DNA of 64,000 bases, taken from contig JANLHL010000038.1 in the NCBI GenBank assembly GCA_024654535.1, positions 169,581 through 233,580 of the forward strand, in the 5' to 3' direction. This DNA is from Candidatus Roizmanbacteria bacterium. GTDB lineage: Bacteria > Patescibacteriota > Microgenomatia > UBA1406. Below, piece by piece: positions 1 through 37,866 of the stretch. The translations under genes were made by a program, and so were the position numbers. The notes under the pieces were generated by a model, which worked only from the letters and a program-made list of their open reading frames with translations, was not told the origin of the DNA and made no database searches. Each line of letters begins with the position of its first letter. Position 1 is the first letter of the stretch.

Positions 1-753
1 AATCGCGGATATATTCATTCTATAGAAACGCTTGGGACACTCGATGGTCCCGGGTTACGCACGGTAGTTTTTTTTCAGGGCTGTCCATTGCGATGTAAAT
101 TTTGCCATAACGTAGATTGTGTGGCGCCTCGTGGCGGATCGGAGTATACGATAGATGAACTATGTAGGCGAGTGTTAAAAAACAAAGAATATTGGGGTGT
201 TTCAGGTAAAGATGGCGGCGTTACGGTGAGTGGAGGAGACCCTACATATCAGCCAGAATTTTTATTGGCTTTTATACGGCGCCTACACAATCAGAATGTT
301 CATATTGTTATCGATACTTCGCTCATGACTTCGACTAAGGTAATAGAATCCATTTTGCCATACGTCGATTTGTGGATGGTGTCGGTGAAACATATGGAGG
401 AGAAAAAACATGAGTATCTCACCGGCTTTTCTAATAAACACATACTGGCAAATATACGTCATCTTGATACTCTATTAGATAGAAAACCAAAATTGCGTAT
501 ACGCTATCTTGTTATTCCCGGCATAACCGATACTCTTTCTGCATTACAACTTTTCTCTGCATTTGTTTCAAAATTAAAATCAATTGAATCTGTTGAGCTA
601 TTACCGTATGGAACGTATGGCGTTCATAAATGGATAGAAATGTATGGCACATATCCGCTGTCCAAAGTGAATGCTGCAACACAGAATCATGTCAATGCTG
701 TTGCAAAGGCGCTTGCGAATGTACCCTTCCAGCTGCGTACGGGAAATACGTGA
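1..753 (+). CDS. pflA: Glycyl-radical enzyme (pyruvate formate-lyase type) activating enzyme, radical SAM; N-terminus cut by the window edge
   Basis: Frame 1 is open from base 1: NRGYIHSIETLGTLDGPGLRTVVFFQGCPLRCKFCHN (CX3CX2C cluster motif), then VSGGDPTYQPEF. ORF-track entry 88..753 is the same frame counted from an internal TTG. Confidence 0.8.
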   Translation, partial: NRGYIHSIETLGTLDGPGLRTVVFFQGCPLRCKFCHNVDCVAPRGGSEYTIDELCRRVLKNKEYWGVSGKDGGVTVSGGDPTYQPEFLLAFIRRLHNQNVHIVIDTSLMTSTKVIESILPYVDLWMVSVKHMEEKKHEYLTGFSNKHILANIRHLDTLLDRKPKLRIRYLVIPGITDTLSALQLFSAFVSKLKSIESVELLPYGTYGVHKWIEMYGTYPLSKVNAATQNHVNAVAKALANVPFQLRTGNT

Positions 754-764
754 GAATATATAAA

Positions 765-793
765 TTGACAAGTTCAAATAAACTCTGTAGTAT
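765..793 (+). promoter_or_regulatory. Sigma70-type promoter for the 807 gene
   Basis: TTGACA (765-770), 17-nt spacer, TAGTAT (788-793); ATG at 807 lies 13 nt downstream. Confidence 0.5.
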
Positions 794-806
794 AGAGATA
801 CTATAC

Positions 807-1259
807 ATGGCACCTCAAAACTTCTCAGACTATATGGATCGAATAGAAAAAACGATTGAGAGGTATGTAGAGAAGGCCCCATCGTTACCGAACTCCTGGA
901 AAGAATTTCTTGTCACCGTTATGCCCTGGTATATAGGGCTTGTCATCCTCTTGAATCTTCCCATATTTTTTTCTCTGTTTGGTTTAGCTTCTTTAGTATC
1001 ACCCTTTGCCTATATTTTTGGCTCAAAAGTAAGTGGTATTACAGCTGCCTTGATTTTATCAGCAGGAATCTTAGCACTACAAATAATGGCAGAACAAGGT
1101 TTATTTAGTAGAAAGAGAAAATCATGGAAGCTACTATTTTATAGTGCACTACTTGGTATAGTACATGGTATTTTTGTAGGAAGTATGTTTAGCGTACTCG
1201 TTATGAGTGTCATAACACTCTATATTCTATTTCAGATCAAATCGTACTATACTTCGTAA
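807..1259 (+). CDS. Small polytopic membrane protein, function unknown
   Basis: ORF-track 630..1259 overlaps pflA, so I start at internal ATG 807 (MAPQNFSDYMDRIEK...) behind the promoter. The sequence has about 4 hydrophobic helices (WYIGLVILLNLPIFFSLFGLASLV, ITAALILSAGILALQI, LLFYSALLGIVHGIFVGSMFSVLVMSVITLYILF). Confidence 0.5.
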   Translation: MAPQNFSDYMDRIEKTIERYVEKAPSLPNSWKEFLVTVMPWYIGLVILLNLPIFFSLFGLASLVSPFAYIFGSKVSGITAALILSAGILALQIMAEQGLFSRKRKSWKLLFYSALLGIVHGIFVGSMFSVLVMSVITLYILFQIKSYYTS

Positions 1260-1260
1260 G

Positions 1261-2199
1261 ATGAAAAATATACTCATCACCGGAGCCTTTGGATTGGTAG
1301 GGACAGATCTTACTATTGAACTTAAGCGTAGATTTCCAGATGCACACATAGTGAGTATGGCTCATGCGATCTCGACCGATAATGGTACTATTCAAGAAAA
1401 AGGTGACGTTACTGACAGGGCACATCTTAAAGAGATTCTCGAAAAACATGAGATTTCGGAGATGTATCATTTAGCTGGGCTTCTGTCAGTTGGTGGCGAG
1501 AAAGATCCTCCTCGCGCGTGGAACGTAAACGTAGAAGGCTTACGAAATGTGCTTGATCTCGCTGTTCAAAGGAATATGAAAGTATTTTGGCCAAGTTCGA
1601 TAGCTGCATTTGGTTCGACCACTCCAAAAAAAGATACTCCACAGCATACAATTCTTGAACCGACGACTATCTATGGGGTAACAAAAGTGACGGGGGAACT
1701 ACTCTGTCAGTATTATTTTTTACGCTACGGATTGGACGTTCGGAGTTTACGCTATCCCGGGCTTATAGCATATAAGGCACCACCTGGCGATGGTACGACG
1801 GAGTACTCTGTTCATATTTTTTATGGGGCGTTAAAAGAAAATAGATATACCTGTTTTCTCAAGGAAGATTCTCGACTTCCTATGATGTATATAGATGACG
1901 CAGTAAAGGGAACAATAGACCTTATGGAAGCTCAATCAAGCAATCTTACCGTACGGACGAGCTATAATTTTTCTGCAATTAATTTTACACCGAGCGAGCT
2001 AGTGATAGAAATTCAGAAACAAATACCTTCATTCACCTGTACGTATGAACCAGATCATAGACAAAAAATAGCAGATTCATGGCCACAGTCAATAGATGAC
2101 TCATGTGCACGAAATGAATGGGGATGGCAGCATGAATATGATTTGCAGCGGTTGGTTGTGGTCATGCTTGAGAATTTAAAGAAGAAATTGCAGTTATAA
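1261..2199 (+). CDS. tdh: L-threonine 3-dehydrogenase of the UDP-glucose-4-epimerase-like (extended SDR) type
   Basis: It has an N-terminal Rossmann motif (ILITGAFGLVG) and YGVTK (YxxxK). The C-terminal signature RQKIADSWPQSIDDSCARNEWGW is typical of SDR-type TDH. It sits directly upstream of kbl. Confidence 0.8.
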   Translation: MKNILITGAFGLVGTDLTIELKRRFPDAHIVSMAHAISTDNGTIQEKGDVTDRAHLKEILEKHEISEMYHLAGLLSVGGEKDPPRAWNVNVEGLRNVLDLAVQRNMKVFWPSSIAAFGSTTPKKDTPQHTILEPTTIYGVTKVTGELLCQYYFLRYGLDVRSLRYPGLIAYKAPPGDGTTEYSVHIFYGALKENRYTCFLKEDSRLPMMYIDDAVKGTIDLMEAQSSNLTVRTSYNFSAINFTPSELVIEIQKQIPSFTCTYEPDHRQKIADSWPQSIDDSCARNEWGWQHEYDLQRLVVVMLENLKKKLQL

Positions 2200-2213
2200 A
2201 TTTTTATTACTAC

Positions 2214-3467
2214 ATGAGAAAACAATTTTTAGATGTTTTACAAAAGGAAGTAGCCCGTATAGATACTGCAAAGACAGCTAAACGTACTGAAAAAATAATA
2301 GAAGGTTTTACGCGTGAGATTTCTCCAAAGGCACTTATCGATGGTAAGGAAGTGCGTATTTTTAACTCAAATGACTATTTGGGATTACGATTTTCTCCCG
2401 TCTTACATGAAGCTGAAGTGGCTGCGTCTGAAAAGTATGGTACAGGTCCTGGTGCAGTGCGATTTATATCTGGCACACTTAGAATACATCGCGATTTAGA
2501 ACAGTCTATTGCTCAATTTCATAAGCAAGACGAAGCGATGGTATTCTCTTCTGCATTTGCTGCAAATTTGGCAGTGCTGTTTTGTATGCTGAAGGGGCAG
2601 AGTAAGGATTCTTTAGTGAGCGACGATGTACTAGTTGTTTCTGATGCACTCAATCACCGCAGCATAATAGATGGTATTCGATTAGCGGGTTTACAGAGCG
2701 AACAAAAACAAATATTTAAGCATATGGATGCGCAAGACTTGGCAAGAGTACTTAAGGCACATGAAGGGAAATTCAAGCGTGTTGTCGTAGTAACAGATGG
2801 AGTTTTTAGTATGTTGGGAGAATATCAACAGCTGAAGCGTGTACGTGACGTGGTTGATGAATTCGACAAAAAATATCAAGAAGGTGTATCTCTCATTGTT
2901 GATGACTGTCATGGAGTTGCAGCGTGTGGGGAAACTGGCCGTGGTACGAGCGAATTGTTTGATATTGTTCCAGATATTACCGTGGGCACTCTTGGCAAAG
3001 GGTTTGGTGCAGACGGAGGATATGTTGTGGGCAATCACACAGTTATTAATTATTTGCGAGAATCGGCGGCGACGTATATTTATTCAAACTCAATTTCACC
3101 TGGAACAGCAGGGGCTGCTCGAGCAGCAGTTGAACTAGTTGATGGGCCCGAAGGCAAGCGTCTTTTATCAAACCTTTCTGAAAATATCCGATTGTTTAAA
3201 AAAGAAATGAAACAAGCGGGCTTTGTTTTTGCGGCAGACTCAAGCCATCCGATACAACCGATACTCATTGGTGACGCGGCAAAAACTAAGGCGCTCACCG
3301 AAGGATTGTTTGAAGAAGGGATATTAGTAACTAACATAAATTATCCAGTTGTTCCACCGGGACGCGACGAAATACGGGTACAAATAAGTGCAGCTCACCA
3401 AACGAGTGATATTGAGTATTTTGTCGGAAAAGCAACTACCGTTGCGAGAAAATTGGGAATTATTTAA
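2214..3467 (+). CDS. kbl: 2-amino-3-ketobutyrate CoA ligase (glycine C-acetyltransferase), PLP-dependent alpha-oxoamine synthase family
   Basis: Motifs seen: FNSNDYLGL, ALNHRSIIDGIRL, DDCHG and the PLP-lysine region TLGKGFG. The 417-aa length and pairing with tdh fit. Confidence 0.85.
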   Translation: MRKQFLDVLQKEVARIDTAKTAKRTEKIIEGFTREISPKALIDGKEVRIFNSNDYLGLRFSPVLHEAEVAASEKYGTGPGAVRFISGTLRIHRDLEQSIAQFHKQDEAMVFSSAFAANLAVLFCMLKGQSKDSLVSDDVLVVSDALNHRSIIDGIRLAGLQSEQKQIFKHMDAQDLARVLKAHEGKFKRVVVVTDGVFSMLGEYQQLKRVRDVVDEFDKKYQEGVSLIVDDCHGVAACGETGRGTSELFDIVPDITVGTLGKGFGADGGYVVGNHTVINYLRESAATYIYSNSISPGTAGAARAAVELVDGPEGKRLLSNLSENIRLFKKEMKQAGFVFAADSSHPIQPILIGDAAKTKALTEGLFEEGILVTNINYPVVPPGRDEIRVQISAAHQTSDIEYFVGKATTVARKLGII

Positions 3468-3481
3468 GGGCAAGTTGCTAC

Positions 3482-3509
3482 TTGACACTAATTTAAATTC
3501 CGTTACACT
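3482..3509 (+). promoter_or_regulatory. Sigma70-type promoter for the 3520 gene
   Basis: TTGACA (3482-3487), 16-nt spacer, TACACT (3504-3509); ATG at 3520 lies 10 nt downstream. Confidence 0.5.
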
Positions 3510-3519
3510 TAAGACTCTT

Positions 3520-3951
3520 ATGGACGACAATACACAAAATAATCAACCAGATACAGAAGCGCCAGTCGCTGCTCAACAGGCGCTCAAAATAGATGAGCTT
3601 GTACTTAAATATGTGCGAGAGGTAGAAGAAATAAAGGGAAAGCTGAGAGAAGAAACCAGTATGTTCAAAGACACCTTTGCAAATGACGAAGAATATAAAA
3701 AACTGCAAGACGAGATTCAAGTAATAACCAAAAAAAGAAAACTTGTCGAGGAAAAATTATCAAAAATTCCATCAGTTGCAGATACGAAAGCAAAAATCCA
3801 GTCACTAAAAGAAGATATGCGAAGTGCGCAAGATATGTTGAGTGCGTACCTTGAACAATATGTACAAACGTATAATCAACGTACTATAGAAGACGAAAAT
3901 GGCGCTGTACAGGAAATTATCCCAAGCTATAAACTCGTAAAGCAAAAATAA
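3520..3951 (+). CDS. Hypothetical coiled-coil protein (143 aa)
   Basis: ORF-track 3388..3951 overlaps the kbl 3' end, so I use internal ATG 3520 behind the promoter. The sequence is K/E/Q-rich with heptad-like stretches (EEIKGKLREETSMFKD, KLQDEIQVITKKRKLVEEKL). I recognised no family. Confidence 0.5.
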   Translation: MDDNTQNNQPDTEAPVAAQQALKIDELVLKYVREVEEIKGKLREETSMFKDTFANDEEYKKLQDEIQVITKKRKLVEEKLSKIPSVADTKAKIQSLKEDMRSAQDMLSAYLEQYVQTYNQRTIEDENGAVQEIIPSYKLVKQK

Positions 3952-3966
3952 TTTCAGAATTTTTTT

Positions 3967-5022
3967 CTATTCAGTAGTATACATCGTAAGATTCGCTCGC
4001 GGTATTCTTTCAACATTTTGTATTGCGTGTTTATCGTTTAGCATAATGCCTTTTTTGTATTTATACCACGCAACCACACCTATCATTGCTGCGTTATCAC
4101 CTGACAAATATGGATAGGCAACGGTGAGTGGTTTTCTGTGGTATGTGCGAACAAGTGATCGAAATTGTTGGCGCAGAGTCTTATTCGCAGAGACACCACC
4201 TCCGAGTATCACAAGTGGTATGTCTGCTCTTGTTTTTAGCGCTCGTTCAAGTTTTAAAAGAAGTGATTGAACAACTGCATTTTGAAAGCTTGCTGCGAGG
4301 TCGTGTATGTGTAGAACTCTTTCTTTTTCATTCATACTATAGACGACATGTTTGAATGCTGTTTTTAGTCCAGAATATGAGAAGTTAAGCCCGGGTAATT
4401 TTTTCATTGGGACGGGTAGTGCATATGCTTTTGGGTTACCATTTTCCGCAAGTCGTTCTATTGCTGGACCTGCTGGATAACCTAAACCCAACATCCTTCC
4501 TGCTTTATCGAGTGCTTCTCCTGCAGCATCATCGAGAGTACTTCCCAGTATTTGATACTGAATATGGCTTGTTACTATGACCAACTGTGTATGACCACCT
4601 GATACGACAAGTGCTAAAAAAGGGAAAAGAAACTCTCTTTTTGGATTGCCATTCTTGTTTTGTACGAAAGGGGAGTACATATGACCTTCTATATGGTCGA
4701 CTGGTATGAGTGGCTTTTTATACAGTAATGCGAGCAATTTTGCCGTTGAGACACCAACTTCAAGTGCAGGTGGAAGTCCGGGACCGATGGTAACAGCTAT
4801 AGCTTTAATGTCGGTAAAGCGCATCTGTGCTTTTTTCATAGCAAGCTCAATAGCAGGAGTTATTTTACTGTAATGTTCACGCTTTGCCAACGATGGGAAT
4901 ACTCCGCCATATGGTTTGTGTAAAGAAATCTGCGAAAATATAACGGTACTGAGAACTCGTTGTTTATTTGTTATAGCAACACTAGTTTCATCTGCACTCG
5001 TATCTATAGATAAAATATTCAT
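3967..5022 (-). CDS. tsaD: tRNA N6-adenosine threonylcarbamoyltransferase TsaD (Kae1/Qri7/Gcp family)
   Basis: Motifs seen: ILSIDTSADET, the HIEGH metal motif, LVVSGGHT, GYPAGPAIE and GGVSAN. Confidence 0.9.
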   Translation of the reverse strand: MNILSIDTSADETSVAITNKQRVLSTVIFSQISLHKPYGGVFPSLAKREHYSKITPAIELAMKKAQMRFTDIKAIAVTIGPGLPPALEVGVSTAKLLALLYKKPLIPVDHIEGHMYSPFVQNKNGNPKREFLFPFLALVVSGGHTQLVIVTSHIQYQILGSTLDDAAGEALDKAGRMLGLGYPAGPAIERLAENGNPKAYALPVPMKKLPGLNFSYSGLKTAFKHVVYSMNEKERVLHIHDLAASFQNAVVQSLLLKLERALKTRADIPLVILGGGVSANKTLRQQFRSLVRTYHRKPLTVAYPYLSGDNAAMIGVVAWYKYKKGIMLNDKHAIQNVERIPRANLTMYTTE

Positions 5023-5025
5023 TTT

Positions 5026-6102
5026 TTATTGTACTTCAAAGATATCTAATTGTCGTTCATCTTTGCCCATATCGGTAAACGCTATGAGTATTGTTTTTGT
5101 TGTTTTTTCAACCAAAGGTATAAGTGAACCCAATCGTTCTCCCCATTCAACAAGCGTTATACTATTTTGCGTTATAGTATTGGGGATACTGAGCGCCTGC
5201 AGTTCTTCTTCTGTTCTAATATTGTACAAATCGAAGTGATAAAACTTTTTATAGTAAGGGTTGGGAGTGTCATATTCGTGACATACTACATAGGTGGGCG
5301 AAGCTACAACTTCCGTAAGTCCAAGGAATGCTCCTACCCCTTTCGCAAAGATAGTTTTTCCCGTACCTAAGTCCCCTTTTAGAATAAAAAGTAGCGGTTT
5401 ATTCTCTGCATATTGTTGATATTTACTGACCAATGTATGCGCCATTTTCATAGTTTCTGAAACGCTTTTACTTTGGAATGTGCTGTGCTTTTTGAGTGCG
5501 AGCGTACCAGACCGGAGTATTTTAAGCGTATCTTTTGCCATATGTAATACAGTTGAAGGCTCGTTATGGGGTAATGTTCCTGCATCAATTATAAGTGACA
5601 GTTGATTTCGTTTTATATGTGATAGAGTGTTCAAAAATGCGTTTATAGAATAGTGTGGTCCTTTACCGCTCATATTTGCACTTGTTGCAGTGATTGGGAA
5701 TGGAAGTTTTGTCGTAATATCGTGCACAAGTTTATTGTCGGGAATACGAATACCTATCGTATTGTCTTCAGCTTCTAGCCGATTGTCAACCATGTGAAGT
5801 GATGAGAGTACAAGAGTAAAGGGCCCTGGGAGTAATGTTTCAATAAGTTGGCGTTGGTTATCGTCTATAGCGGCATAGGTACTGAGCTTTTCCAAAGAGG
5901 CTATCGCAATAGATATTGCCTTACCTTTTGGCCGGTCTTTAAATGCTAGAAGCTTATCAACAGCTTTTTTTGATACCGCGTTCACAGCGAGACCATATAC
6001 AGTATCTGAGGGAAAAACGACAAGTTCATCACGTGTCAGTGCATCATACATTTTTTGCAAAACTTCTTTTCGATTTTTTTCTGTGAGCTTCACTATTTCC
6101 AT
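5026..6102 (-). CDS. tsaC-tsaE: Fusion protein: N-terminal TsaC/Sua5 (YrdC domain, aa 1-~203) plus C-terminal TsaE (YjeE P-loop ATPase, aa ~212-358)
   Basis: The YrdC motifs are PSDTVYGLA, FKDRPKGKA, LPGPFTLVL, IGIRIP, TSANMSGKG and PSTVL. The TsaE motifs are LKGDLGTGKT (5353-5376), ASPTYVV, YHFDLYN and LVEWGERL. It is one uninterrupted ORF ending 3 nt before the tsaD start. Confidence 0.8.
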   Translation of the reverse strand: MEIVKLTEKNRKEVLQKMYDALTRDELVVFPSDTVYGLAVNAVSKKAVDKLLAFKDRPKGKAISIAIASLEKLSTYAAIDDNQRQLIETLLPGPFTLVLSSLHMVDNRLEAEDNTIGIRIPDNKLVHDITTKLPFPITATSANMSGKGPHYSINAFLNTLSHIKRNQLSLIIDAGTLPHNEPSTVLHMAKDTLKILRSGTLALKKHSTFQSKSVSETMKMAHTLVSKYQQYAENKPLLFILKGDLGTGKTIFAKGVGAFLGLTEVVASPTYVVCHEYDTPNPYYKKFYHFDLYNIRTEEELQALSIPNTITQNSITLVEWGERLGSLIPLVEKTTKTILIAFTDMGKDERQLDIFEVQ

Positions 6103-6145
6103 CTGTCTATTATACCGCTCAAATCTACCTATTTACTTGCTAATT

Positions 6146-7669
6146 TCAACGATACTGTAATGAACTAAACACACTTTCCACAGGTATCTTTCTTTCTAAC
6201 TCAGATAGCTTAAATAATTCAACTGCGTATCCACCCGGATACACCTTTCTTTGTATAGGCACGTGTTCTATATGCAATATATTTTTGGTCCACCAACGGT
6301 TGTCCATAAGTGTTCTGTCGGGATAAGGTCCAATAATAATATATGTATATTTTTTTTTGATAAACGCCGAAGAATTTTTATCAAGATGTAGTTGTTGTTC
6401 GTAGAGCATTGTATACATAGGGATATAATTACTGATTTGATCGTCAGTGTTGATAAAATATCCAAACTGTTTTGCCGAATCCTGATAAATAGACTCTGCA
6501 TATTTTTTTTGAACTGCCCAGCGAGACAACTGAATACCATTACTCTGTACATAGTTGATTCCAGATATGAGATTGAAAATTATTCCAATAAACACAATTG
6601 TATAAAGTACTGAGCTTCTGTTTGCTATCTGTGCGATAAGTATTGCGCTCACTCCTGAGAATGCCCAGTAATAGTACCAATGTATGGCATTTCCAGATAA
6701 TATGAGCGCCACCCAAAAGACACTATAGAGGAAAAGGAATGTGCTGATAATGTTCAATGTTTTCTTATTTTTTTCTTTACGTGCCAATATATATAATATA
6801 ATTATTACTATAAATGAAAATATGTTCATTATTTTAGAGATAATGAAGAACATATCCTGAGGCGTTGCAATAAATAACCTATTTCCTTGCAGCATGGTGT
6901 ATAGATTATTCAGAACTGAAGAGAAATTGTTTGCATTTTTTTGATTTTCACTCAATGTGTGTATTAATGTTTGTATTTGCAAACCATTGTGTCTGACATC
7001 AAACATAATGAAGGTTGATATGGCAAGTAATAATAAAGGAAAGGTGAAAAGGTGGTTTATTTTCTTCGTTTTGAAAATTACTCGACAAACCAGTAAAAGG
7101 CTTGCGAGCATAATCGGTACTCCGAATACCATTTCGCTCTGTATCAAAATCCCTCCTATCCCCATAATCCCAACTAAATATATAAGGCGGGTAGTCCATA
7201 TATATGCAAGTAGTAAATAAAAATAGATTGGAAATAAAATAACTGCAACAAATGGATTAGTCGGAGAGTTTATAAAAAAGAGTATATGGGATGTAAGTAT
7301 AAACATACTTAGCAAACCTGTTTTTTCGTCAAAAAGTTTTTTACCTACATACCATAGACTTCCCAAGAATATCAAAAAAAGTAAAAGCCAAAAAAATGTA
7401 CTATATGCTGGATTACCATGACTAAAAATAAATACTGGTAGATTCAAGTATAGCCAAAAAGGTCCATGATATACTCCGTTAATCGCTGTCCTTGCTCCAA
7501 TAAGTGTTAAGTGATGATTTTTGACGATATCATTCATAAGTAAAAAATCTCGTGCTACGTCAATGTCAAAAATTACACCCGTTTTTATGGAATAGGATAT
7601 GACGACGAATAATAGTATTAAAAAAAAGATTTTTAATAGTAAAGATGGTTTTGTTTGTTTCTCTTTCAT
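6146..7669 (-). CDS. Large polytopic membrane protein, probable GT-C-type (ArnT/PMT-like) glycosyltransferase
   Basis: The 507-aa protein has about 12 hydrophobic segments, an acidic first loop (FDIDVARDF) and a soluble C-terminal domain. The assignment rests on architecture only. Confidence 0.4.
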   Translation of the reverse strand: MKEKQTKPSLLLKIFFLILLFVVISYSIKTGVIFDIDVARDFLLMNDIVKNHHLTLIGARTAINGVYHGPFWLYLNLPVFIFSHGNPAYSTFFWLLLFLIFLGSLWYVGKKLFDEKTGLLSMFILTSHILFFINSPTNPFVAVILFPIYFYLLLAYIWTTRLIYLVGIMGIGGILIQSEMVFGVPIMLASLLLVCRVIFKTKKINHLFTFPLLLLAISTFIMFDVRHNGLQIQTLIHTLSENQKNANNFSSVLNNLYTMLQGNRLFIATPQDMFFIISKIMNIFSFIVIIILYILARKEKNKKTLNIISTFLFLYSVFWVALILSGNAIHWYYYWAFSGVSAILIAQIANRSSVLYTIVFIGIIFNLISGINYVQSNGIQLSRWAVQKKYAESIYQDSAKQFGYFINTDDQISNYIPMYTMLYEQQLHLDKNSSAFIKKKYTYIIIGPYPDRTLMDNRWWTKNILHIEHVPIQRKVYPGGYAVELFKLSELERKIPVESVFSSLQYR

Positions 7670-11008: not shown

Positions 11009-11041
11009 TTGCAAATCATTCGCAATTAGTACCAAATCACT

Positions 11042-11069
11042 TTGAACAGTAGGTATTGTGTGGTATACT
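11042..11069 (+). promoter_or_regulatory. Strong sigma70-type promoter with extended -10
   Basis: TTGAAC (11042-47), 16-nt spacer, TGgTATACT (11061-69); an ATG follows 6 nt later at 11076. Confidence 0.55.
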
Positions 11070-11075
11070 GCAGTC

Positions 11076-11144
11076 ATGGTACATAACATTACTAACTCAT
11101 TAAGCATCTATTATGCCCTGAGGGTTGGTAATGATATGGTATAA
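11076..11144 (+). CDS. Candidate leaderless 22-codon small ORF (MVHNITNSLSIYYALRVGNDMV), or alternatively the 5' part of a ~116-nt small RNA
   Basis: The ATG lies 6 nt after an extended -10, the same geometry as 15 bona fide genes in this window. A TAA stop is at 11142-44 and an intrinsic terminator follows 22 nt later. I recognised no homology. Confidence 0.3.
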   Translation: MVHNITNSLSIYYALRVGNDMV

Positions 11145-11165
11145 AACCAAAAAATAGACATTACT

Positions 11166-11192
11166 AACCCCGACTAGCGTCGGGGTTTTTTA
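11166..11192 (+). terminator. Rho-independent terminator T1
   Basis: aaCCCCGAC-tagc-GTCGGGGtt followed by TTTTTT. Confidence 0.7.
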
Positions 11193-11249
11193 TTGCAAAA
11201 AATGTGTATAAAAAAACATAACAGAACAACCTATTATTACTATTTACTC

Positions 11250-11317
11250 TTTGGGGAGGAAGGCTATTATATGCCATAAATTTGAATTTAACTTTGACAA
11301 ATTTACACCTCCCCAAA
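11250..11317 (+). promoter_or_regulatory. Putative antiterminator helix / structured leader upstream of the GNAT-like/M20 operon
   Basis: tttGGGGAGG (11250-59) is the exact reverse complement of CCTCCCCaaa (11308-17), which overlaps the 5' arm of terminator T2. The enclosed segment has an AU hairpin, aaatttg (11278-84) with caaattt (11298-304). It also carries GGAGGAAGG followed by the mini-ORF ATG CCA TAA (11271-79). Confidence 0.35.
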
Positions 11318-11331
11318 CGGGGAGGTTTTTT
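11308..11331 (+). terminator. Rho-independent terminator T2, immediately upstream of the 11350 gene
   Basis: CCTCCCC-aaac-GGGGAGG followed by TTTTTT; it ends 19 nt before ATG 11350. Confidence 0.7.
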
Positions 11332-11349
11332 ATTAATTAATTATTAACT

Positions 11350-12384
11350 ATGAACATTGAAACAATTGAACAAAAAATTGGTGAACGAGAGCAGAGGATA
11401 CGTGATTTATCAATAACAGTCATTGAGCCTGAACAAAGTATAGGTCCAGAAATACAAGCTCAGTGGATGATTGATTTATTATCTAAAATATATGTCAATC
11501 ATGGAGTAACTCAAAATCCTCAAGGGGTAATTGATGCTATTGTGTCGGGCGACATGAGATGTTGGTTTGCGCTCGATGTAGATAACAGTCCAGTGAGTGT
11601 CGCAGCACTCATTGCTCAAAGGGACGGTGCGGTCGAGTTGGGTAGGGCTGTTGCGCTCCAGACGAACCAGGGAGTAGGAGGATTACTTATGTTAACAGCT
11701 GCACTCGATCATATTCAACATTCAGAACAACCGCTCGTGGCTGAAGTTCGAATGGCCGATGAATTTCATGGCGTGCACTCCTCGCATTCAACGCAAGTTA
11801 TAAGTTTCGGACACATCGGTCTTCATCCCCACGCGCTTGTGCCCGCTTTTCATCATGGTGAACCAAATAGGCAAGAACCTTTTGCATTCAGTTCTTCAAG
11901 GAAAATACTTGATCCTGAAAAAGCTTTTTTGGCTGATCCAACTGCACAGGTATGGCAAGCTACGCTTGGACTCATGCAGGAGTTTGCTCCGTCTATACAA
12001 GTTGAGATGTGTGAATCGGGTTCACTTGAGCATGGGTGGACAATTGTGCAAGAAAAGCCATTCGTCGTCGTTGTCCCTGAAAGAAGTACAACTACGAATC
12101 TAGATACAACGTTGCAAAGGGCAGATAATCTTGATGCGTTTACGCTGATACCCATAAGCCTTTCGTCAGAGATGGCAGGTGCTGTGAATGAATGTTTACG
12201 GCTAGGGCTTGTGCCTTGTGGTATAGATAGAAGCCTTGATGAGAATGGTCACCCACAGCTACTCATGGGAAGGTTAAGGCAAGGTACAATGCTCGCACCG
12301 ATGGTACAAGTTCCCAATGCACTGTCTCAAGCTCAATCTAGCGCTTTACGAGCAATTGATCAACAGTTTAGAAAGCAGATATGA
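11350..12384 (+). CDS. Hypothetical protein with two GNAT-like (acyl-CoA N-acyltransferase fold) halves; function unknown
   Basis: The N-half has AVELGRAVALQTNQGVGGLLMLTAAL, which resembles GNAT motif A, followed by ...FGHIGLHPHALVPAF. The C-half ends LRLGLVPCGIDRSLDENGHPQLLMGRL, the same (L)G(F/L)-x-P-x-G tail pattern. It is a real ORF of 344 aa, but the family call is tentative. Confidence 0.45.
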   Translation: MNIETIEQKIGEREQRIRDLSITVIEPEQSIGPEIQAQWMIDLLSKIYVNHGVTQNPQGVIDAIVSGDMRCWFALDVDNSPVSVAALIAQRDGAVELGRAVALQTNQGVGGLLMLTAALDHIQHSEQPLVAEVRMADEFHGVHSSHSTQVISFGHIGLHPHALVPAFHHGEPNRQEPFAFSSSRKILDPEKAFLADPTAQVWQATLGLMQEFAPSIQVEMCESGSLEHGWTIVQEKPFVVVVPERSTTTNLDTTLQRADNLDAFTLIPISLSSEMAGAVNECLRLGLVPCGIDRSLDENGHPQLLMGRLRQGTMLAPMVQVPNALSQAQSSALRAIDQQFRKQI

Positions 12385-13451
12385 TAAATCTTCTAAAAAA
12401 ACTAGTTCAATTCCAAAGCATATCAACAGATCAATCGGCGAATCGAGCTATTCTTACATATTGCCAAACATATCTTCGTGATGTAAATATAGCCAGCGCC
12501 ATAAAGATGTTCAATGGAAAACCTATATTGTGGTGGGGAACGCCGCCTCATAATGCAACATTTCTTTTTAATACACACTGCGACGTAGTGCCTGGAACTC
12601 AGAGTGTATTCATTCCACATCAAGTAAAAAACAGGCTCTATGGTCGTGGTACCGCCGATGCGAAATGTAACGTAGCACTACTATTATCAATTACTCAAGA
12701 GCTGGGATGGTTATTTAAAAAAAAGGGGATTATGTGTGCTATTTCGTGTGACGAAGAAATAGGTGGTGCATCCACAAAAAAATTATTATCTCGCATGTCT
12801 GCATTGAAATTTGGTATTTTTGGCGAGCCAACAAATATGCATATCGTTCATGAGGCAAAAGGAATTATGCAGGTATGTTTGACTCAAAAAGGAAAATCTG
12901 CACATGGCTCTCGCCCATGGGATGGAAAAAATGCCATAGAACAACTGACGGAAAAACTCTACGTATTTCGACAACACATTCCATCGCCTTTAAAAGAGAC
13001 AAAAAATACAACGTATAATTTTTCTCTTATTACCGGCGGCAGTGCTATTAATCAAATCCCTGACTCGTGCCAACTTAAGATAGATATACGTGTTAGTCCG
13101 CATGATACGCCTGAAGAAATAACGACACGTCTCAAAAAATATTTTTTAGATTGTGAAATATCAGTTTTAAAAAGTGAAAGTTGTGTTTCGACTGACAAGA
13201 ACAATGTTTGGGTTCGCCAATTTGCGTATTCTGTACAGAAATATAATAAAAATTCTCACTTTGCTTTTGAACATGGTAGCTCAGATGCACGTCACGCCAG
13301 TGCGCGCGCCATTCCTGCAGTAGTTTTTGGTCCCGTAGGGGGTAATTTACATCAAGAAAGAGAGTGGGTCGACGTACCAAGTATTTCTGTGTCCAGAAAT
13401 GTGCTCAAGAATTTCATTGTAAATATCGCTGAAGTAATATCGAGGCAATAA
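12381..13451 (+). CDS. M20 family metallopeptidase/deacylase (ArgE/DapE-like)
   Basis: Motifs seen: HCDVVPG, GRGTADAKCNVA, CDEEIGG and SDARH. The ATG overlaps the upstream stop (ATGA at 12381-84). Confidence 0.8.
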   Translation: MINLLKKLVQFQSISTDQSANRAILTYCQTYLRDVNIASAIKMFNGKPILWWGTPPHNATFLFNTHCDVVPGTQSVFIPHQVKNRLYGRGTADAKCNVALLLSITQELGWLFKKKGIMCAISCDEEIGGASTKKLLSRMSALKFGIFGEPTNMHIVHEAKGIMQVCLTQKGKSAHGSRPWDGKNAIEQLTEKLYVFRQHIPSPLKETKNTTYNFSLITGGSAINQIPDSCQLKIDIRVSPHDTPEEITTRLKKYFLDCEISVLKSESCVSTDKNNVWVRQFAYSVQKYNKNSHFAFEHGSSDARHASARAIPAVVFGPVGGNLHQEREWVDVPSISVSRNVLKNFIVNIAEVISRQ

Positions 13452-13462
13452 AGTTGTATTTG

Positions 13463-14245
13463 TTACTTTATTTCAAACACGACTGTTGCTGTAGCAGATT
13501 CAAGAGAACTTCCCTCTTGAGCGGGCATGGTTGTTTTTTCCATACCCATCATACTTGTTGCAGTATTGACGAGATCGTATCCCTGGTATGGAGTATATGA
13601 GAAACCTTCCGTAATGGAAAGTATCTTGCCTATGTGTATTTTTTGCGCTTTTGCAATTTTTTCTGCCTTTGCTTGTGCGTCGGCGACTGCAAGAGTTAAA
13701 AGATCATGATTTGCTGTTTTTGTATCATCTTGACGAAAGTTAGGCCCATTCACATTTTTTGCCTCGCTATTTACAAGGTAGGTTTGAATAGATTCAACTT
13801 TATTTGTATCTCTGATTGTTATTTCCAGTGAGCTTGATACTATCCAATCACCCGGCCGCGTTAAGTATACTCCCTTCGTGTCTTGATAGGGAATTTGTTC
13901 CTGTCGTTCAGAGACACGGCTCGTTTTTAAATCTTCTTCAGCAATTCCATTGGTCTTAAGCCAGCTAACAATAGTGGTCATACTTTGTGCAGCGTCATTT
14001 GCAGCTTTTGTCTTGTCCGCATCTTTACCTTCCACTTGTAATGAGAATGAAGCGAGGGTATTTTTATTATTCTGTTTCGCAGTGCCATACACAGTGATAG
14101 TTCTTTTTTGCTGTATGAGGCTTGTGCTGCTATTAGCTGTATTTCTGGTGAACAGCGAATAGAAAACTGCAGAAAGCAGTACAACAAATCCGAGTAGTGC
14201 GATGATGCTTGTTTTGTTTTGCATAGTTAAATAATGATGGCACAT
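13463..14245 (-). CDS. SIMPL/DUF541-family secreted protein with N-terminal membrane anchor
   Basis: It has an N-terminal TM (IIALLGFVVLLSAVFY) and the typical DUF541 layout (ITVYGTA..., ...DAAQSMTTIVSWLKTNGIAEEDLKTS..., ...DAQAKAEKIAKA...). The true start may be internal ATG 14224 (MQNKTS). Confidence 0.7.
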   Translation of the reverse strand: MCHHYLTMQNKTSIIALLGFVVLLSAVFYSLFTRNTANSSTSLIQQKRTITVYGTAKQNNKNTLASFSLQVEGKDADKTKAANDAAQSMTTIVSWLKTNGIAEEDLKTSRVSERQEQIPYQDTKGVYLTRPGDWIVSSSLEITIRDTNKVESIQTYLVNSEAKNVNGPNFRQDDTKTANHDLLTLAVADAQAKAEKIAKAQKIHIGKILSITEGFSYTPYQGYDLVNTATSMMGMEKTTMPAQEGSSLESATATVVFEIK

Positions 14246-14357: not shown

Positions 14358-15113
14358 ATGGAGTCTGAATTACATTGGAGGCAAAAGGTAGCGGACCAAA
14401 TAAAAGATGCTTGGAGAAGAGAAAAACAAGGTTGGCAAGGGCCTGAAAGTGATTCTTATAATACGACTCGGAGAGGTCTAGACTATATTCATGCATTAGG
14501 AGGCATATCGGCAACGGCTAAGTATGTGGATACTTCATTTGCAGGTATGCCTATTTTAGATATAGGTGCTGGATCGACTATTGGGATTGCAGAATTGCAA
14601 GAGTGTTTTTTCCCGACACATACGGCATGGGGAACAGTATTATCGAGACCACAACAGCCATTAAATAATTTCTCCACTCTTCCGTCCGATCGTGTCGTTT
14701 TCACACCCGCAGAAACGCTCAGCGGTTTATATAGAGAATTTATTGGTTCACAGCCGAATTTTGCATTAGTTACCGGCGTCATGTCAATTGTTTATAGCAG
14801 AGCACCTGAGCAGTGTATACGTGCGATAAGTAAGATACTACCAGATGGTGGGATAGTTAAACTTTGTCTGTCAAACTCATATTGGGGTGATAATAACACT
14901 ATGCTTTGTGCTATGGACTTTTATGCTAAATTTATAGTTGCTGGTTATGGAACTTCATATTTACGAAATCTTCGCTGTGGTGATAGCATAGTTGACGTAG
15001 TACTTGCTGTAAAAGGGAGAGATAAAAGCTTCGCAATAAACATGATAAATAATGACCTGTGGAGTAGAAAGAATGATGCAATTAAAATGGAGAAATTCTA
15101 TACATCAAGTTAA
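14358..15113 (+). CDS. Hypothetical protein, possible class I SAM-dependent methyltransferase fold
   Basis: ILDIGAGSTIG resembles motif I, and later ALVTGVMSIVY and ILPDGGIVKL resemble motifs II and III. The rest is unrecognised. Confidence 0.4.
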   Translation: MESELHWRQKVADQIKDAWRREKQGWQGPESDSYNTTRRGLDYIHALGGISATAKYVDTSFAGMPILDIGAGSTIGIAELQECFFPTHTAWGTVLSRPQQPLNNFSTLPSDRVVFTPAETLSGLYREFIGSQPNFALVTGVMSIVYSRAPEQCIRAISKILPDGGIVKLCLSNSYWGDNNTMLCAMDFYAKFIVAGYGTSYLRNLRCGDSIVDVVLAVKGRDKSFAINMINNDLWSRKNDAIKMEKFYTSS

Positions 15114-35634: not shown

Positions 35635-35874
35635 CTACTTTAGCGGATCGAACCCTCCTTTTGACCACGGATTACAGCGGAGTATACGCAGTGTTCCCTT
35701 GTACATCCCTTTCAATGCTCCATATTTTTGTACGGCGTCAATTGAATATTGGGAACACGTCGGCTGGAATCTGCAGCTTTCAGAAGGAAGGCCAAGTACT
35801 TTTAACAAAGTCCTCATTGGCGTACTAGCCCACACGTAAATGTGTATGAGCCATATGATGACACGCTTTATCAT
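35635..35874 (-). CDS. yidD: Membrane protein insertion efficiency factor YidD
   Basis: [44 protein letters not shown] is the canonical YidD signature. Confidence 0.85.
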
Positions 35875-37190
35875 GTTGTAATCACGTTTTCGAGTACGCG
35901 TATGCCTTTCGCGTACAACTTTGTATCTATATGTTCGTTTGGACCGTGCAGATTGCTATCGGGAGAGCAAAAACCTGTGGTGATGACTGGTTTATTAAAG
36001 ATGCGTAATAATATTTCTGCTGCAGGTATAGAGCCACCTGACTTTGTATATCTTACAGAATTGGGAAAATATTTTTTATATATTTCCGTCAGCTCATTAA
36101 TGTATATATTCTTTATGTCAGTTACAAACGGACCAGCAACAGCTTTACTGGTAAGAGTATAGGATATGTTTTTGAAAAACTGTTTTGCATAGGTATTCAC
36201 AATGTTGTGTATTTCACTAGTTTTTTGATTGGGTACCAATCGAATAGAAAAAACAGCCCGTGCGTTATTGGGAATAATATTTTTTATCTTATCAGTATAG
36301 CCACTTGAGATTCCGTGAATATCTAAAGATGGTAATGTTTTAGATGCCTCGTACCATTGTCGGTTCTTTGGAACTACAGAGTGGGTCAAATGCATCTTAT
36401 TTTGAAGGTGAGTATACTCTGTTGTTTCTTTTTTTAGCAACGCATCATCGATTTTTGTATACTCAGCAACTCGATCGTACATGTGAGGCAGGGTTAGGTA
36501 GTTGTGTTGATTAAACATACTTGCGAAGAACTGTGAGAGTATAAGGGCGGCATTTGGAACGACATTTCCATATAGGCCAGAATGAAGTTCTTGCTTTGCG
36601 GTGCTGATGGTCAATTCGTATTCAACGATACCTCGTAAACCATACAATATTTCTGGTGTATCATTATCAAATACGCTTGAATCGAGTATATAAAACACCT
36701 GTACATCTTTCAGCTGCTTTTTCAGACGTAATACAGAGCGTTCAAAATTGAGACTGCCAAGTTCTTCTTCTCCTTCATAGAGAATAATGATATTAGAATT
36801 AATCGTTTTGTTTTTCTTTGCGTTTGCGAGCGCTGTGAAGAGCTGAGCAATGTGACCTTTGTCGTCTGCTGTGCCTCTACCATATAGCTTTCCATCGTGC
36901 TCTGTGAGAGTAAAAGGATCGCTTTCCCAGCCGTTTGATAGTAGAGCTGGTTGAACATCGTAATGGCTATAAAAACAACGCGTTATCGGCTTTCCACTGT
37001 CAAGTGTGGCCATAAAAAGAGGGTGTGTTGGCGTTTCTATGATAGTTGTTTGCATGCCACACATCTTTGCTATTTTTTCTAAATAGGCAACCGTCTCACG
37101 CATAGTATTCTTTTTTGATGGATCCATAGAGACAGATTGTAGCCCGGTTAATTCTGCAAGGAGTGTGTGTTCGTCAGGTAAATTTTTCAT
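35871..37190 (-). CDS. M20 family dipeptidase/metallohydrolase
   Basis: Motifs seen: [20 protein letters not shown] and EGEEELGS. The start is either 37226 or 37190; both overlap the upstream gene's 3' end. Confidence 0.75.
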
Positions 37191-37866
37191 GGAAAATATT
37201 ACTTTCTGGCACAGATTTTTGTGCAAGATACTGTTTTAAGCTTTCAACTATTGTGGGTCGGGCGCAAACATAGTATTCGAATGACTGTGGTGAATTATGC
37301 AAGAAAATATCATTGAGGGCGTCTTGTATATAGCCCTTGCTGCAATGGTCGCGTACATCTCCTTTTGAAAGGCAAAAGGTGTAGTCAAAACCCTTCATGC
37401 GACCAAGTTTTTTCCAGATATCTGTGTAGTACGCTTGTTCAAAAGTACGCGTTCCCCATAAAAGGATTCGCTTCTGTGGACTACGCATCTCGTGCATAAA
37501 CTCAAGCATTGATTTCATTGGCGCAATACCACTTCCTGTAGCTAAAAATAGTTTCGGAAGATTTGATTCGTGCAGCACAAAAACGCCAAGTGGTGCCCGA
37601 AAATGTATATGATCACCCAATGCAAGATTCATGAGATATTGAGAACCAATACCCATTGGAGTAGTATCTATGAGTAGTTCAAATTTTTTGTTAAATTGTG
37701 GACTAGATGCAATAGAATACTGGCGAAATCCATTTCCGACTTCAAGCAAAATGTATTGTCCTGACTTAAACTCAAGCGTATCGTCTACGAGATCAAACCA
37801 AAGCTGCAGCACATTAGGGGCGAGCACATTTTTTTCGGTAAGAGTAGCTGTATAGTGTTTGAGCAT
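37174..37866 (-). CDS. Ferredoxin-NADP(+) reductase-like FAD/NAD(P)-binding oxidoreductase
   Basis: It has RQYSIAS (the RxYS FAD motif), GDHIHFRAPLG and LATGSGIAPM (NAD(P) motif). No Fe-S cysteine cluster was seen. Confidence 0.7.
   Translation of the reverse strand: MLKHYTATLTEKNVLAPNVLQLWFDLVDDTLEFKSGQYILLEVGNGFRQYSIASSPQFNKKFELLIDTTPMGIGSQYLMNLALGDHIHFRAPLGVFVLHESNLPKLFLATGSGIAPMKSMLEFMHEMRSPQKRILLWGTRTFEQAYYTDIWKKLGRMKGFDYTFCLSKGDVRDHCSKGYIQDALNDIFLHNSPQSFEYYVCARPTIVESLKQYLAQKSVPESNIFHEKFT

Follow-up and report, generated by a model that had tools for sequence, protein, structure and literature searches.

Leader-controlled pairs of a GNAT-like protein and an M20 hydrolase in Candidatus Roizmanbacteria and other Microgenomates: a probable response to tyrosyl-tRNA charging

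The 64,000-nucleotide (nt) stretch of DNA analysed here (the window) comes from a metagenome-assembled genome (MAG) of Candidatus Roizmanbacteria, one of the Microgenomates within the Candidate Phyla Radiation (CPR). Downstream of era, it carries two overlapping genes behind a long leader. The first gene encodes a 344-residue (344-aa) product, which is 100% identical to the NCBI entry 'hypothetical protein NUV65_04605', and the second a metallo-amidohydrolase of the M20 family. The features of the leader and of the gene pair are as follows.

11009-11349 (+): leader spacer of 341 nt after era, with two terminators and two short open reading frames (ORFs)
11042-11069 (+): putative promoter, TTGAAC, 16 nt, TG-TATACT (9 of 12 consensus matches plus the TG extension)
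11076-11144 (+): leader ORF A, MVHNITNSLSIYYALRVGNDMV, with Tyr-Tyr at codons 12-13 by ORF reading
11119-11173 (+): antiterminator A, GGGUUGGUAAUG pairing with CAUUACUAACCC (-20.5 kcal/mol, z = -3.7 vs shuffles)
11166-11193 (+): intrinsic terminator A, 9-bp stem AACCCCGAC/GTCGGGGTT followed by a T run (-15.8 kcal/mol, z = -5.7)
11202-11279 (+): leader ORF B, MCIKKHNRTTYYYYLLFGEEGYYMP, with four consecutive Tyr codons at 11232-11243 and two more at 11265-11270
11250-11317 (+): antiterminator B, UUUGGGGAGG pairing with CCUCCCCAAA, the 5' arm of terminator B (-23.6 kcal/mol, z = -5.4)
11307-11332 (+): intrinsic terminator B, ACCTCCCC-AAAC-GGGGAGGT followed by T6 (-15.9 kcal/mol, z = -4.7)
11350-12384 (+): 344-aa ORF, acyltransferase-like, from the ORF list
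12381-13451 (+): 356-aa ORF, ArgE/DapE-type M20 metallo-amidohydrolase, by Pfam PF01546 and PF07687

The stop codon of the first gene and the start codon of the second share the sequence ATGA at 12381-12384, as had been noticed in an earlier, sequence-only reading of the window, and the 344-aa gene is, to judge by this overlap, translationally coupled to the ArgE/DapE-type M20 gene. The 'dedicated regulatory leader' of that reading also proved to be present, in the form of two tandem attenuator units in 11009-11349.

In each unit the antiterminator and the terminator are mutually exclusive. In unit A, CAUUACUAACCC takes in the 5' arm of terminator A. In unit B, UUUGGGGAGG sits within ORF B, 7-9 nt past the Tyr run (its GGGGAGG is at 11253-11259), and the two extra Tyr codons of ORF B come after the antiterminator strand. 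The hairpin of terminator B occupies 11307-11326, and the terminator ends 17 nt upstream of the start codon of the 344-aa gene. A short ORF bearing YYY was found in 9 of 1000 dinucleotide shuffles of the spacer. Against Rfam, the window leader gave only sub-threshold matches to Leu, Phe, and Trp leaders, which are driven by the terminators (Leu_leader and Trp_leader by terminator A), and no T-box.

The layout resembles that of the classical attenuators (trp, pheA, his, and leu) in its tandem units, in each of which a short ORF carrying repeated regulatory codons is combined with an antiterminator and a terminator that exclude each other. It differs from them in that the regulatory amino acid is tyrosine, the controlled genes encode no biosynthetic enzymes of a known pathway, the host is a CPR bacterium, every Rfam leader threshold is missed, and the leader ORFs may be leaderless. 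This last possibility is raised by the ATG of ORF A, which follows the -10 box by 6 nt (TATACT-gcagtc-ATG, window 11064-11078) with no Shine-Dalgarno sequence. A spacing of 6-8 nt between the -10 box and the ATG, again with no Shine-Dalgarno sequence, recurs in relatives (L001 5685-5699 and 2168-2183, L051 1951-1968, L052 3849-3864, L053 7521-7536), so that the leader peptides may be translated from leaderless transcripts.

From the family of the 344-aa protein, 49 loci, designated by L-numbers, were collected, which form 29 groups at a 90% identity level. Eight of these groups have leader ORFs with Tyr runs, with differing peptides and stems (e.g. ...NFYYYYFIQRRGWL, ...QSYYYLSMQGGIYMSYKS, and ...ARYYYPNIFQGGGYALLM). 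The first leader ORF of L001, MITKTSLNSNSYYFTSFSPRGE, is the equivalent of ORF A of the window, and equivalents of ORF B are present in L001, L003, L005, L014, L017, L030, and L040. L001, L003, L014, and L040 share the antiterminator/terminator layout, although their stems differ in sequence. In five loci, a YYY leader ORF appeared in 0.2-0.9% of the dinucleotide shuffles per spacer.

In 13 other groups, the leader ORFs are replaced at the same position by a T-box (Rfam RF00230, 41-114 bits). Seven loci score 94-114 bits, above the gathering score of 93 bits, and the others 41-83 bits. The specifier reads GAA-N-UAC-N (Tyr) in ten loci (L007, L008, L011, L013, L021, L027, L036, L047, L048, and L049), and GGUGGNACC is present in the T-boxes of the relatives. 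These T-boxes are, like the Tyr-specific leaders of tyrS, true members of the class with a UAC specifier. Two RNA mechanisms of unrelated kind, both of a type that signals poorly charged tRNA-Tyr, therefore converge on the 344-aa gene, and the operon is very probably controlled by Tyr-tRNA charging, as judged from these sequence features.

Two observations count against this reading. In the group of L015, no leader was found. In two Collierbacteria groups, the specifier loop has a 1-nt insertion (GAAUUAACC), and the codon reading is therefore ambiguous. The T-boxes concerned (L009 5777-5793, L010 3113-3129, and L031-L033) have GAAUUAACCCUCC instead of GAAUUACCCUCC, which gives AAC or a bulged UAC. 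Their T-box bulge is still UGGU, as would suit a tRNA with discriminator A, such as tRNA-Tyr.

The protein itself shows a corresponding peculiarity. It contains a single Tyr, the invariant Y48, vs about 14 expected, which is the lowest content among the 44 ORFs of the window (mean 4.09%, sd 1.57). Exactly one Tyr is present in 20 of 27 family members, with normal Phe content, and the M20 partners are somewhat poor in Tyr (1.2-2.6%). Depletion of the cognate amino acid is expected in proteins that are made while that amino acid is scarce, such as amino-acid biosynthetic enzymes. The combination of a tyrosine-sensing leader with a nearly tyrosine-free protein therefore provides a physiological context for the locus.

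As the sequence-only reading had stated, the 344-aa protein could not be placed in a named family: no Pfam or NCBIfam family was matched at E ≤ 1, ten distant family members had no Pfam match either, and a PDB sequence-profile search returned only an acetyltransferase at E 1.9. Its fold was approached with an AlphaFold2 model built from an alignment of 16 sequences (mean pLDDT 91.2), in which two domains may be seen.

11350-11904 (+): N-terminal GNAT domain, residues 1-185 (AlphaFold2 and Foldseek)
11905-12384 (+): C-terminal degenerate GNAT-like alpha/beta domain, residues 186-344 (model pLDDT 84.9, Foldseek)

The N-terminal domain has the GNAT order of elements, b1-a1-a2-b2-b3-b4-a3-b5-a4-b6-b7. 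A Foldseek search of the PDB with the full model gave 226 matches at E < 1e-3, and all 50 listed are GNAT N-acetyltransferases, each spanning only about 170-190 columns, i.e. one domain. The best is the tabtoxin-resistance acetyltransferase 1GHE (E 1.5e-6, probability 1.00), and others listed are spermidine (SpeG), phosphinothricin/ArsN (PAT), YncA-type amino-acid, and nourseothricin acetyltransferases. The strings quoted in the sequence-only reading are all found in the protein, ELGRAVALQTNQGVGGLLML as residues 96-115, FGHIGLHPHALVPAF as 153-167, and LGLVPCGIDRSLDENGHPQLLMGRL as 285-309. The first of these had been called motif-A-like. Its G108-V109-G110 is correctly placed between b4 and a3, and the G-x-G part is kept across the family, with G110 invariant and position 108 mostly G (S, P, or N in some), while the leading Q/R of motif A is not conserved. 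Conserved strings of this domain include AEVR (131-134) and HHGEPNRQE (168-176), and the invariant charged residues are D92, E96, R99, E132, R134, H169, R174, and E176.

A 'tandem GNAT' protein had been proposed, with GNAT-like character in both halves. The N-terminal half is clearly so by the above matches, and the C-terminal half only marginally. When its 159 residues were modelled alone (pLDDT 84.9), the order of elements was GNAT-like, and 48 of the 50 Foldseek matches listed are GNAT-type acetyltransferases, but none has E < 1e-3 (best E 7e-3, TM 0.3-0.4). Motif A was not seen in this domain in the family alignment, and its invariant residues are W230, P237-F238, and C290-G291. According to the model, the protein is thus one good GNAT domain plus one degenerate GNAT-like domain.

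The N-terminal domain shares its fold (E 1.5e-6 to 1e-4, target TM 0.55-0.70) and the motif A G-x-G loop with the single-domain GNATs 1GHE, PAT/ArsN, YncA, and SpeG. The 344-aa protein differs from them in having only 9-18% sequence identity and no match to a Pfam GNAT model, in adding a degenerate domain of 160 residues, and in having its own set of invariant charged residues. Two-domain GNAT proteins include MshD, Eis, FemX, N-myristoyltransferase, and AstA, which likewise have two GNAT-like halves in about 340 residues with the cofactor loop in one. None of these five is among the 50 Foldseek matches listed, where the query TM never exceeds 0.36, and no sequence similarity to them was detected with Pfam, NCBIfam, or the PDB sequence profile.

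The family is rare. In a set of 5.8 billion proteins it is represented by 16 clusters (90% identity), and a profile search yielded 75 representatives (at 50% identity) among 1.84 billion proteins. The credibly named sources are all Microgenomates (Roizman-, Collier-, and Shapirobacteria), and a few MAGs bear placeholder labels of ENA, such as 'uncultured Pseudomonadales'.

This rarity bears on the accessory character that had been given to the locus from sequence alone, which would amount to a horizontally acquired N-acyltransferase/N-deacylase pair of unspecified substrate and foreign base composition. The hand count of 52-55% G+C on which it leaned is close to the computed 53.3% for 11581-11700, and the whole 344-aa gene, with 44.7%, is at the top of the 44 window ORFs (mean 39.1%, sd 2.0, z = 2.8); the M20 gene has 38.6% and era 39.1%. 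The computed values bear out the deviation, but not its interpretation as foreign DNA. The excess is confined to codon positions 1 and 2 (0.603 and 0.403 vs 0.497 and 0.361 in window ORFs), and the G+C content at position 3 (GC3) is ordinary (0.336 vs 0.316, z = 0.7). Therefore, the excess reflects amino-acid composition, because the protein is rich in Ala and has only 1.7% Lys and 0.3% Tyr, and horizontal transfer as its source was ruled out by the normal GC3. Moreover, the cassette recurs across Microgenomates lineages, in Roizman-, Collier-, and Shapirobacteria, with lineage-specific leaders and beside housekeeping genes, and the amino-acid-specific leaders together with the cognate depletion show long adaptation to the translation system of the host. 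Despite the rarity and the top G+C value, a foreign accessory pair is the least probable of the explanations considered here, with very little left to recommend it.

The partner gene is easier to place. The 356-aa protein matches Peptidase_M20 (PF01546, 80.2 bits, cut-off 24.6) and M20_dimer (PF07687, 68.9 bits, cut-off 21), and its residues H66, D68, D93, E125, E126, E149, and H324 align with those of DapE (1VGY) and ArgE (7RSF), so that the catalytic set is complete and the ArgE/DapE-type assignment made earlier stands. The two-domain architecture and the full metal/catalytic residue set are those of the ArgE/DapE/LysK deacylases, whose logic is also alike in that they perform the last deprotection step of pathways with N-acyl-protected intermediates (ArgA/ArgE). 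In contrast to these enzymes, the window M20 is far under every matched equivalog cut-off (all 25 NCBIfam models listed; best 154 bits vs 381; TIGR01910 150.5 vs 217.6), has no arginine, lysine, or diaminopimelate context, and is under tyrosine regulation. The M20s of the tyrosine cassettes belong to at least two subfamilies: those of some groups share about 45-50% identity with the window M20, those of other groups 24-35%. The comparison by identity with window 12381-13451 comprised the following partners.

L001 7061-8155: M20 partner
L007 2038-3177: M20 partner
L008 1673-2767: M20 partner

The deacylase partner may thus have been exchanged during evolution. The linkage of the two genes is conserved. 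Among the 26 groups with enough sequence to be informative, M20 is directly downstream in 20 and elsewhere within 6 kb in five further groups, which makes 25 of 26 with an M20 in this range. The GNAT-like gene of Collierbacteria follows a T-box and has no M20 next to it.

CPR bacteria, including the present host, are presumed unable to make aromatic amino acids. With the above control, we tentatively favour, at somewhat short of an even chance, that the pair is a sequential acylation/deacylation route, induced by tyrosine limitation, that supplies L-Tyr. The cassette would be made during tyrosine limitation and would raise the supply of L-tyrosine for tyrosyl-tRNA synthetase (TyrRS). The GNAT domain would use acyl-CoA to N-acylate a tyrosine species that is not directly chargeable, and the M20 would then hydrolyse N-acyl-L-tyrosine to free L-tyrosine. 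D-tyrosine would be the leading candidate for this species, mirroring the D-to-L pathway of Geobacillus, with racemisation taking place elsewhere in the genome or by an unrecognised activity; as a specific assignment made by analogy, this substrate is unlikely.

In the Geobacillus conversion, D-amino acids become L-amino acids by the action of a GNAT succinyltransferase, an N-succinylamino-acid racemase, and an M20 L-desuccinylase (bioRxiv 10.1101/2022.03.03.481873), and no other pathway with a GNAT and M20 pair is known to have been described. The likeness lies in the GNAT acyltransferase, the M20 deacylase, and the net supply of L-amino acids. The present cassette differs in that its acyltransferase has two domains and belongs to a family without a Pfam or NCBIfam model, in its amino-acid-specific tRNA-charging control, and in the depletion of its protein in the cognate amino acid. 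The counterpart of the racemase, an enolase of the NSAR/OSBS type, is found only beside the Phe-type operons of L052-L054 described below.

All-against-all clustering of the neighbours in the 29 groups shows that only four genes recur: M20, TyrRS, a decarboxylase dependent on pyridoxal phosphate (PLP), and a small kinase. TyrRS is within 6 kb in 13 of the 29 groups (TIGR00234, 323-325 bits), and in L008, L011, L021-25, and L036 it forms one operon with the family gene behind a single T-box. In L003 and L012, tRNA-Tyr(GTA) lies directly 3' of M20. In three groups there is a P-loop kinase of the GntK/shikimate-kinase type (179-183 aa, TIGR01313 35-53 bits, under cut-off).

The shared operon with TyrRS would agree with a protective function that is induced by a tyrosine antimetabolite or by an inhibitor of TyrRS. 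Induction would follow because the inhibitor leaves tRNA-Tyr uncharged; the GNAT-like enzyme would N-acetylate the toxin, as the tabtoxin-resistance protein, PAT/ArsN, or MccE do, and M20 would cleave the toxin or a carrier. Among the matches listed, the closest structures are indeed antimetabolite N-acetyltransferases (1GHE, ArsN/PAT, YncA, and nourseothricin acetyltransferase), and the kinase, acetyltransferase, and hydrolase of some clusters are classic classes of drug-modifying enzymes. However, a parallel Phe cassette in the L001 contig (see below) and the reciprocal depletion of Tyr and Phe fit nutrition better than two resistances, no recurrent transporter or biosynthetic cluster is present nearby in the 29 groups, and no natural Tyr-directed inhibitor is implicated by the data in hand. 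We consider protection improbable.

In L021 (5460-5999), L027 (5125-5670), and L015 (5449-6000), the kinase gene is inserted upstream of the GNAT-like gene, where it follows the Tyr T-box or the PLP decarboxylase. The aminoacyl-tRNA synthetase neighbours and a weak KTI12 match of one kinase also raised a role that depends on tRNA, like that of FemX or of PSTK/SepSecS. This idea was dropped, since no Fem protein is among the Foldseek matches listed and the recurrent kinase is of the GntK/shikimate-kinase type.

The PLP decarboxylase is a group II enzyme present in eight groups, with PanP and the archaeal tyrosine decarboxylase MfnA as the best models, both under cut-off. It has 486-493 aa (L007 4272-5732, L009 7153-8634, L013 3139-4620, L015 4001-5452, L036, and L047) and travels with the Tyr cassette and TyrRS, recalling the tyrS-tdc arrangement of lactic acid bacteria, where that arrangement exists. 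The cassette might accordingly be imagined as a tyrosine-consuming module like the enterococcal tyrS-tdc, in which tyramine from the decarboxylase, or tyrosine itself, would be N-acylated by the GNAT-like enzyme, and the co-expressed TyrRS would keep translation supplied. The position of the decarboxylase after the GNAT-like gene or within the cluster in the eight groups and the frequent adjacency of TyrRS are in line with this. However, a protein almost purged of Tyr and switched on by uncharged tRNA-Tyr is the reverse of what such a module would call for; the window and 21 of the 29 groups lack the decarboxylase, and no recurrent Tyr/tyramine antiporter is nearby in the 29 groups. A consuming role is therefore highly improbable.

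The tyrosine cassette has a counterpart. In L001, a 408-aa protein followed by another M20 is encoded 2.2 kb upstream of the Tyr cassette, and this protein, a distant paralogue, aligns to the 344-aa family over 271 columns (hhalign, probability 88%). Upstream of it are two tandem Phe-rich leader ORFs, MTSKTSLYSGSSFFSFFFRSKQEVS and MIVRPINHHFRFFFNFLCGRSL, each with a terminator. Homologues of the 408-aa protein also precede M20 behind Phe-run leaders elsewhere. The Phe-run leaders with terminators in front of operons ending in M20 are as follows.

L001 2181-2480: leader ORFs with FFSFFF and FRFFFNF
L050 3863-3975, L051 1966-2070, and L052 3862-3975: leader ORFs with FFGFF, FFFFF, and FFFF
L053 7534-7650 and L054 4548-4665: leader ORFs with FFYF and FFFFF

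In one contig with a Phe cassette, the alpha subunit of phenylalanyl-tRNA synthetase (PheRS alpha) is encoded directly 3' of M20. The paralogues behind Phe leaders have normal Tyr (3.5%) and low Phe (1.9% vs 4.6%). From these features, we infer that the paralogous cassette serves phenylalanine likewise.

The gene between the Phe leader and M20 is not constant. L053 and L054 lack the GNAT-like paralogue at this place; the first genes there encode a 567-aa protein of no recognised kind and a 633-aa protein with an aminotransferase domain. It follows that M20 and its partner possibly act in parallel and not in sequence. M20 alone would then free tyrosine, as an aminoacylase or dipeptidase acting on imported N-acyl-Tyr or X-Tyr, and the GNAT-like protein would be co-induced separately, for a second supply reaction, for substrate delivery in a complex with M20, or in a role other than transferase. 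The constancy of M20 behind the Phe leaders, while the upstream gene varies (GNAT-like paralogue, 567-aa, and 633-aa), agrees with such parallel salvage, as do the Collierbacteria genes without an adjacent M20 and the mixed origin of the M20 partners, which represent two or more subfamilies and are 24-50% identical to that of the window. On the other hand, what the Tyr leaders control directly and most constantly is the GNAT-like protein, not M20, and it is by far the more Tyr-depleted of the two (0.3% vs 1.2-2.6%). Furthermore, a joint, stoichiometric function is suggested by the ATGA coupling and by the M20 that comes directly after the gene in 20 of 26 groups, and the pyrophosphate loop of motif A (G-x-G) shows the conservation expected of an active transferase. 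Parallel salvage is the strongest of the rivals but, on the whole, doubtful.

An NSAR/OSBS-type enolase (TIGR01928, 258 bits, cut-off 200.65) adjoins the Phe cassette in L052, and such genes are also found beside the Phe-leader operons of L053 and L054. The search for NSAR homologues was swamped by OSBS-like sequences of Chloroflexi.

Several of these observations count against the sequential route that we favour. With no intermediate step, acylation followed by deacylation would be futile, and no NSAR/OSBS racemase is present in the window or in the 29 Tyr-family neighbourhoods, unlike in the Geobacillus pathway; nor do these neighbourhoods contain a recurrent racemase, transporter, or other converting enzyme. 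The NSAR/OSBS gene is rare in these lineages, and its copy in L052 stands behind a different, branched-chain-like leader. The replacement of the GNAT-like paralogue in L053 and L054 belongs here also, and the PLP decarboxylase (eight groups) and the kinase (three groups) are left unexplained by the route.

Other genes behind leaders are found in these and related loci. A third type of leader, with ORFs rich in branched-chain residues (MKGLGFSLIITQLVLVTEAGA and MTDKSLSMIFVLLINPFRAEA) and a terminator, precedes an unannotated protein of 484-528 aa, as follows.

L052 201-310: leader; 680-3823: downstream genes
L053 3979-4095: leader; 4374-7496: downstream genes
L051 28-145: leader; 253-1941: downstream genes

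In L052 and L053, the 484-528-aa protein is followed by the NSAR/OSBS-type enolase and a protein of 124-125 aa. A conserved ORF of 76 aa recurs (L051 1711-1941 and L052 5193-5423). In L003, a T-box at 4897-5057 (-) precedes a 177-aa single-domain GNAT and a 371-aa M20, divergent from the Tyr cassette, so that a further GNAT plus M20 pair is under tRNA control. This T-box, detected only in L003 and L018 (348-534, -), has a very short stem I, with the hairpin loop GUCGCGA and a possible CGC or GCG specifier, and a syntenic pair of 177-aa GNAT and M20 is seen in L040 (-). In L008, a leader ORF, MLQINQSKFSFYSFTASNG, with a terminator-like hairpin (403-570) precedes a 361-aa protein with an N-terminal GNAT and a 364-aa M20 (579-2767), directly upstream of the Tyr T-box operon. 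No similarity to the 344-aa family was detectable in the 361-aa GNAT of L008, the 484-528-aa proteins, or the 567-aa and 633-aa proteins.

As for the other surroundings, the cassette of the window is followed by a SIMPL/DUF541 protein with an N-terminal membrane anchor (13463-14245, -; PF04402, 110 bits) and then by a 251-aa protein with a weak methyltransferase match (14358-15113, +). By sequence similarity, neither gene recurs beside the cassette in other groups. The 288-315-aa proteins of no recognised kind that flank M20 in several loci are not related to one another. A second M20 of the window (35871-37226, -) is larger (451 aa) and dipeptidase-like. It has no GNAT-like partner gene and is preceded by a 230-aa oxidoreductase-like ORF (37174-37866).

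Taken more broadly, the Microgenomates may possess a set of such cassettes, one per amino acid (Tyr, Phe, and possibly branched-chain amino acids and arginine), each with its own tRNA-charging sensor of the leader-peptide or T-box type, proteins purged of the cognate residue, and a GNAT-like plus M20 route that would make chargeable L-amino acids from unusable forms. This extension is more speculative than the route for tyrosine itself, and we hold it as a possibility only. Within it, the usable source may be, for example, D-enantiomers from neighbouring cells, and the converting step, whether a racemisation or some other change, may reside in the C-terminal domain. The parts of the system are of known kinds, namely GNAT, M20, leader-peptide attenuator, and T-box. 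What appears to be undescribed in the searched libraries and literature is the protein family, its pairing with M20 under Tyr and Phe control, the reciprocal cognate depletion, and the CPR setting.

For their amino acids, CPR bacteria are believed to rely on other cells, and how they acquire and balance them is largely unexplained. Here, two RNA sensors, the adjacency of TyrRS and tRNA-Tyr, and the removal of Tyr converge on one unannotated gene pair, which would be an apparent dedicated response to tyrosine shortage. As read from their sequences, the leaders would show that CPR bacteria use leader-peptide attenuation based on Tyr and Phe codons. A 'hypothetical protein' thereby becomes a testable candidate for a salvage reaction of aromatic amino acids, and a hint of function at the level of the family is gained for about 75 protein clusters not covered by any model in Pfam or NCBIfam.

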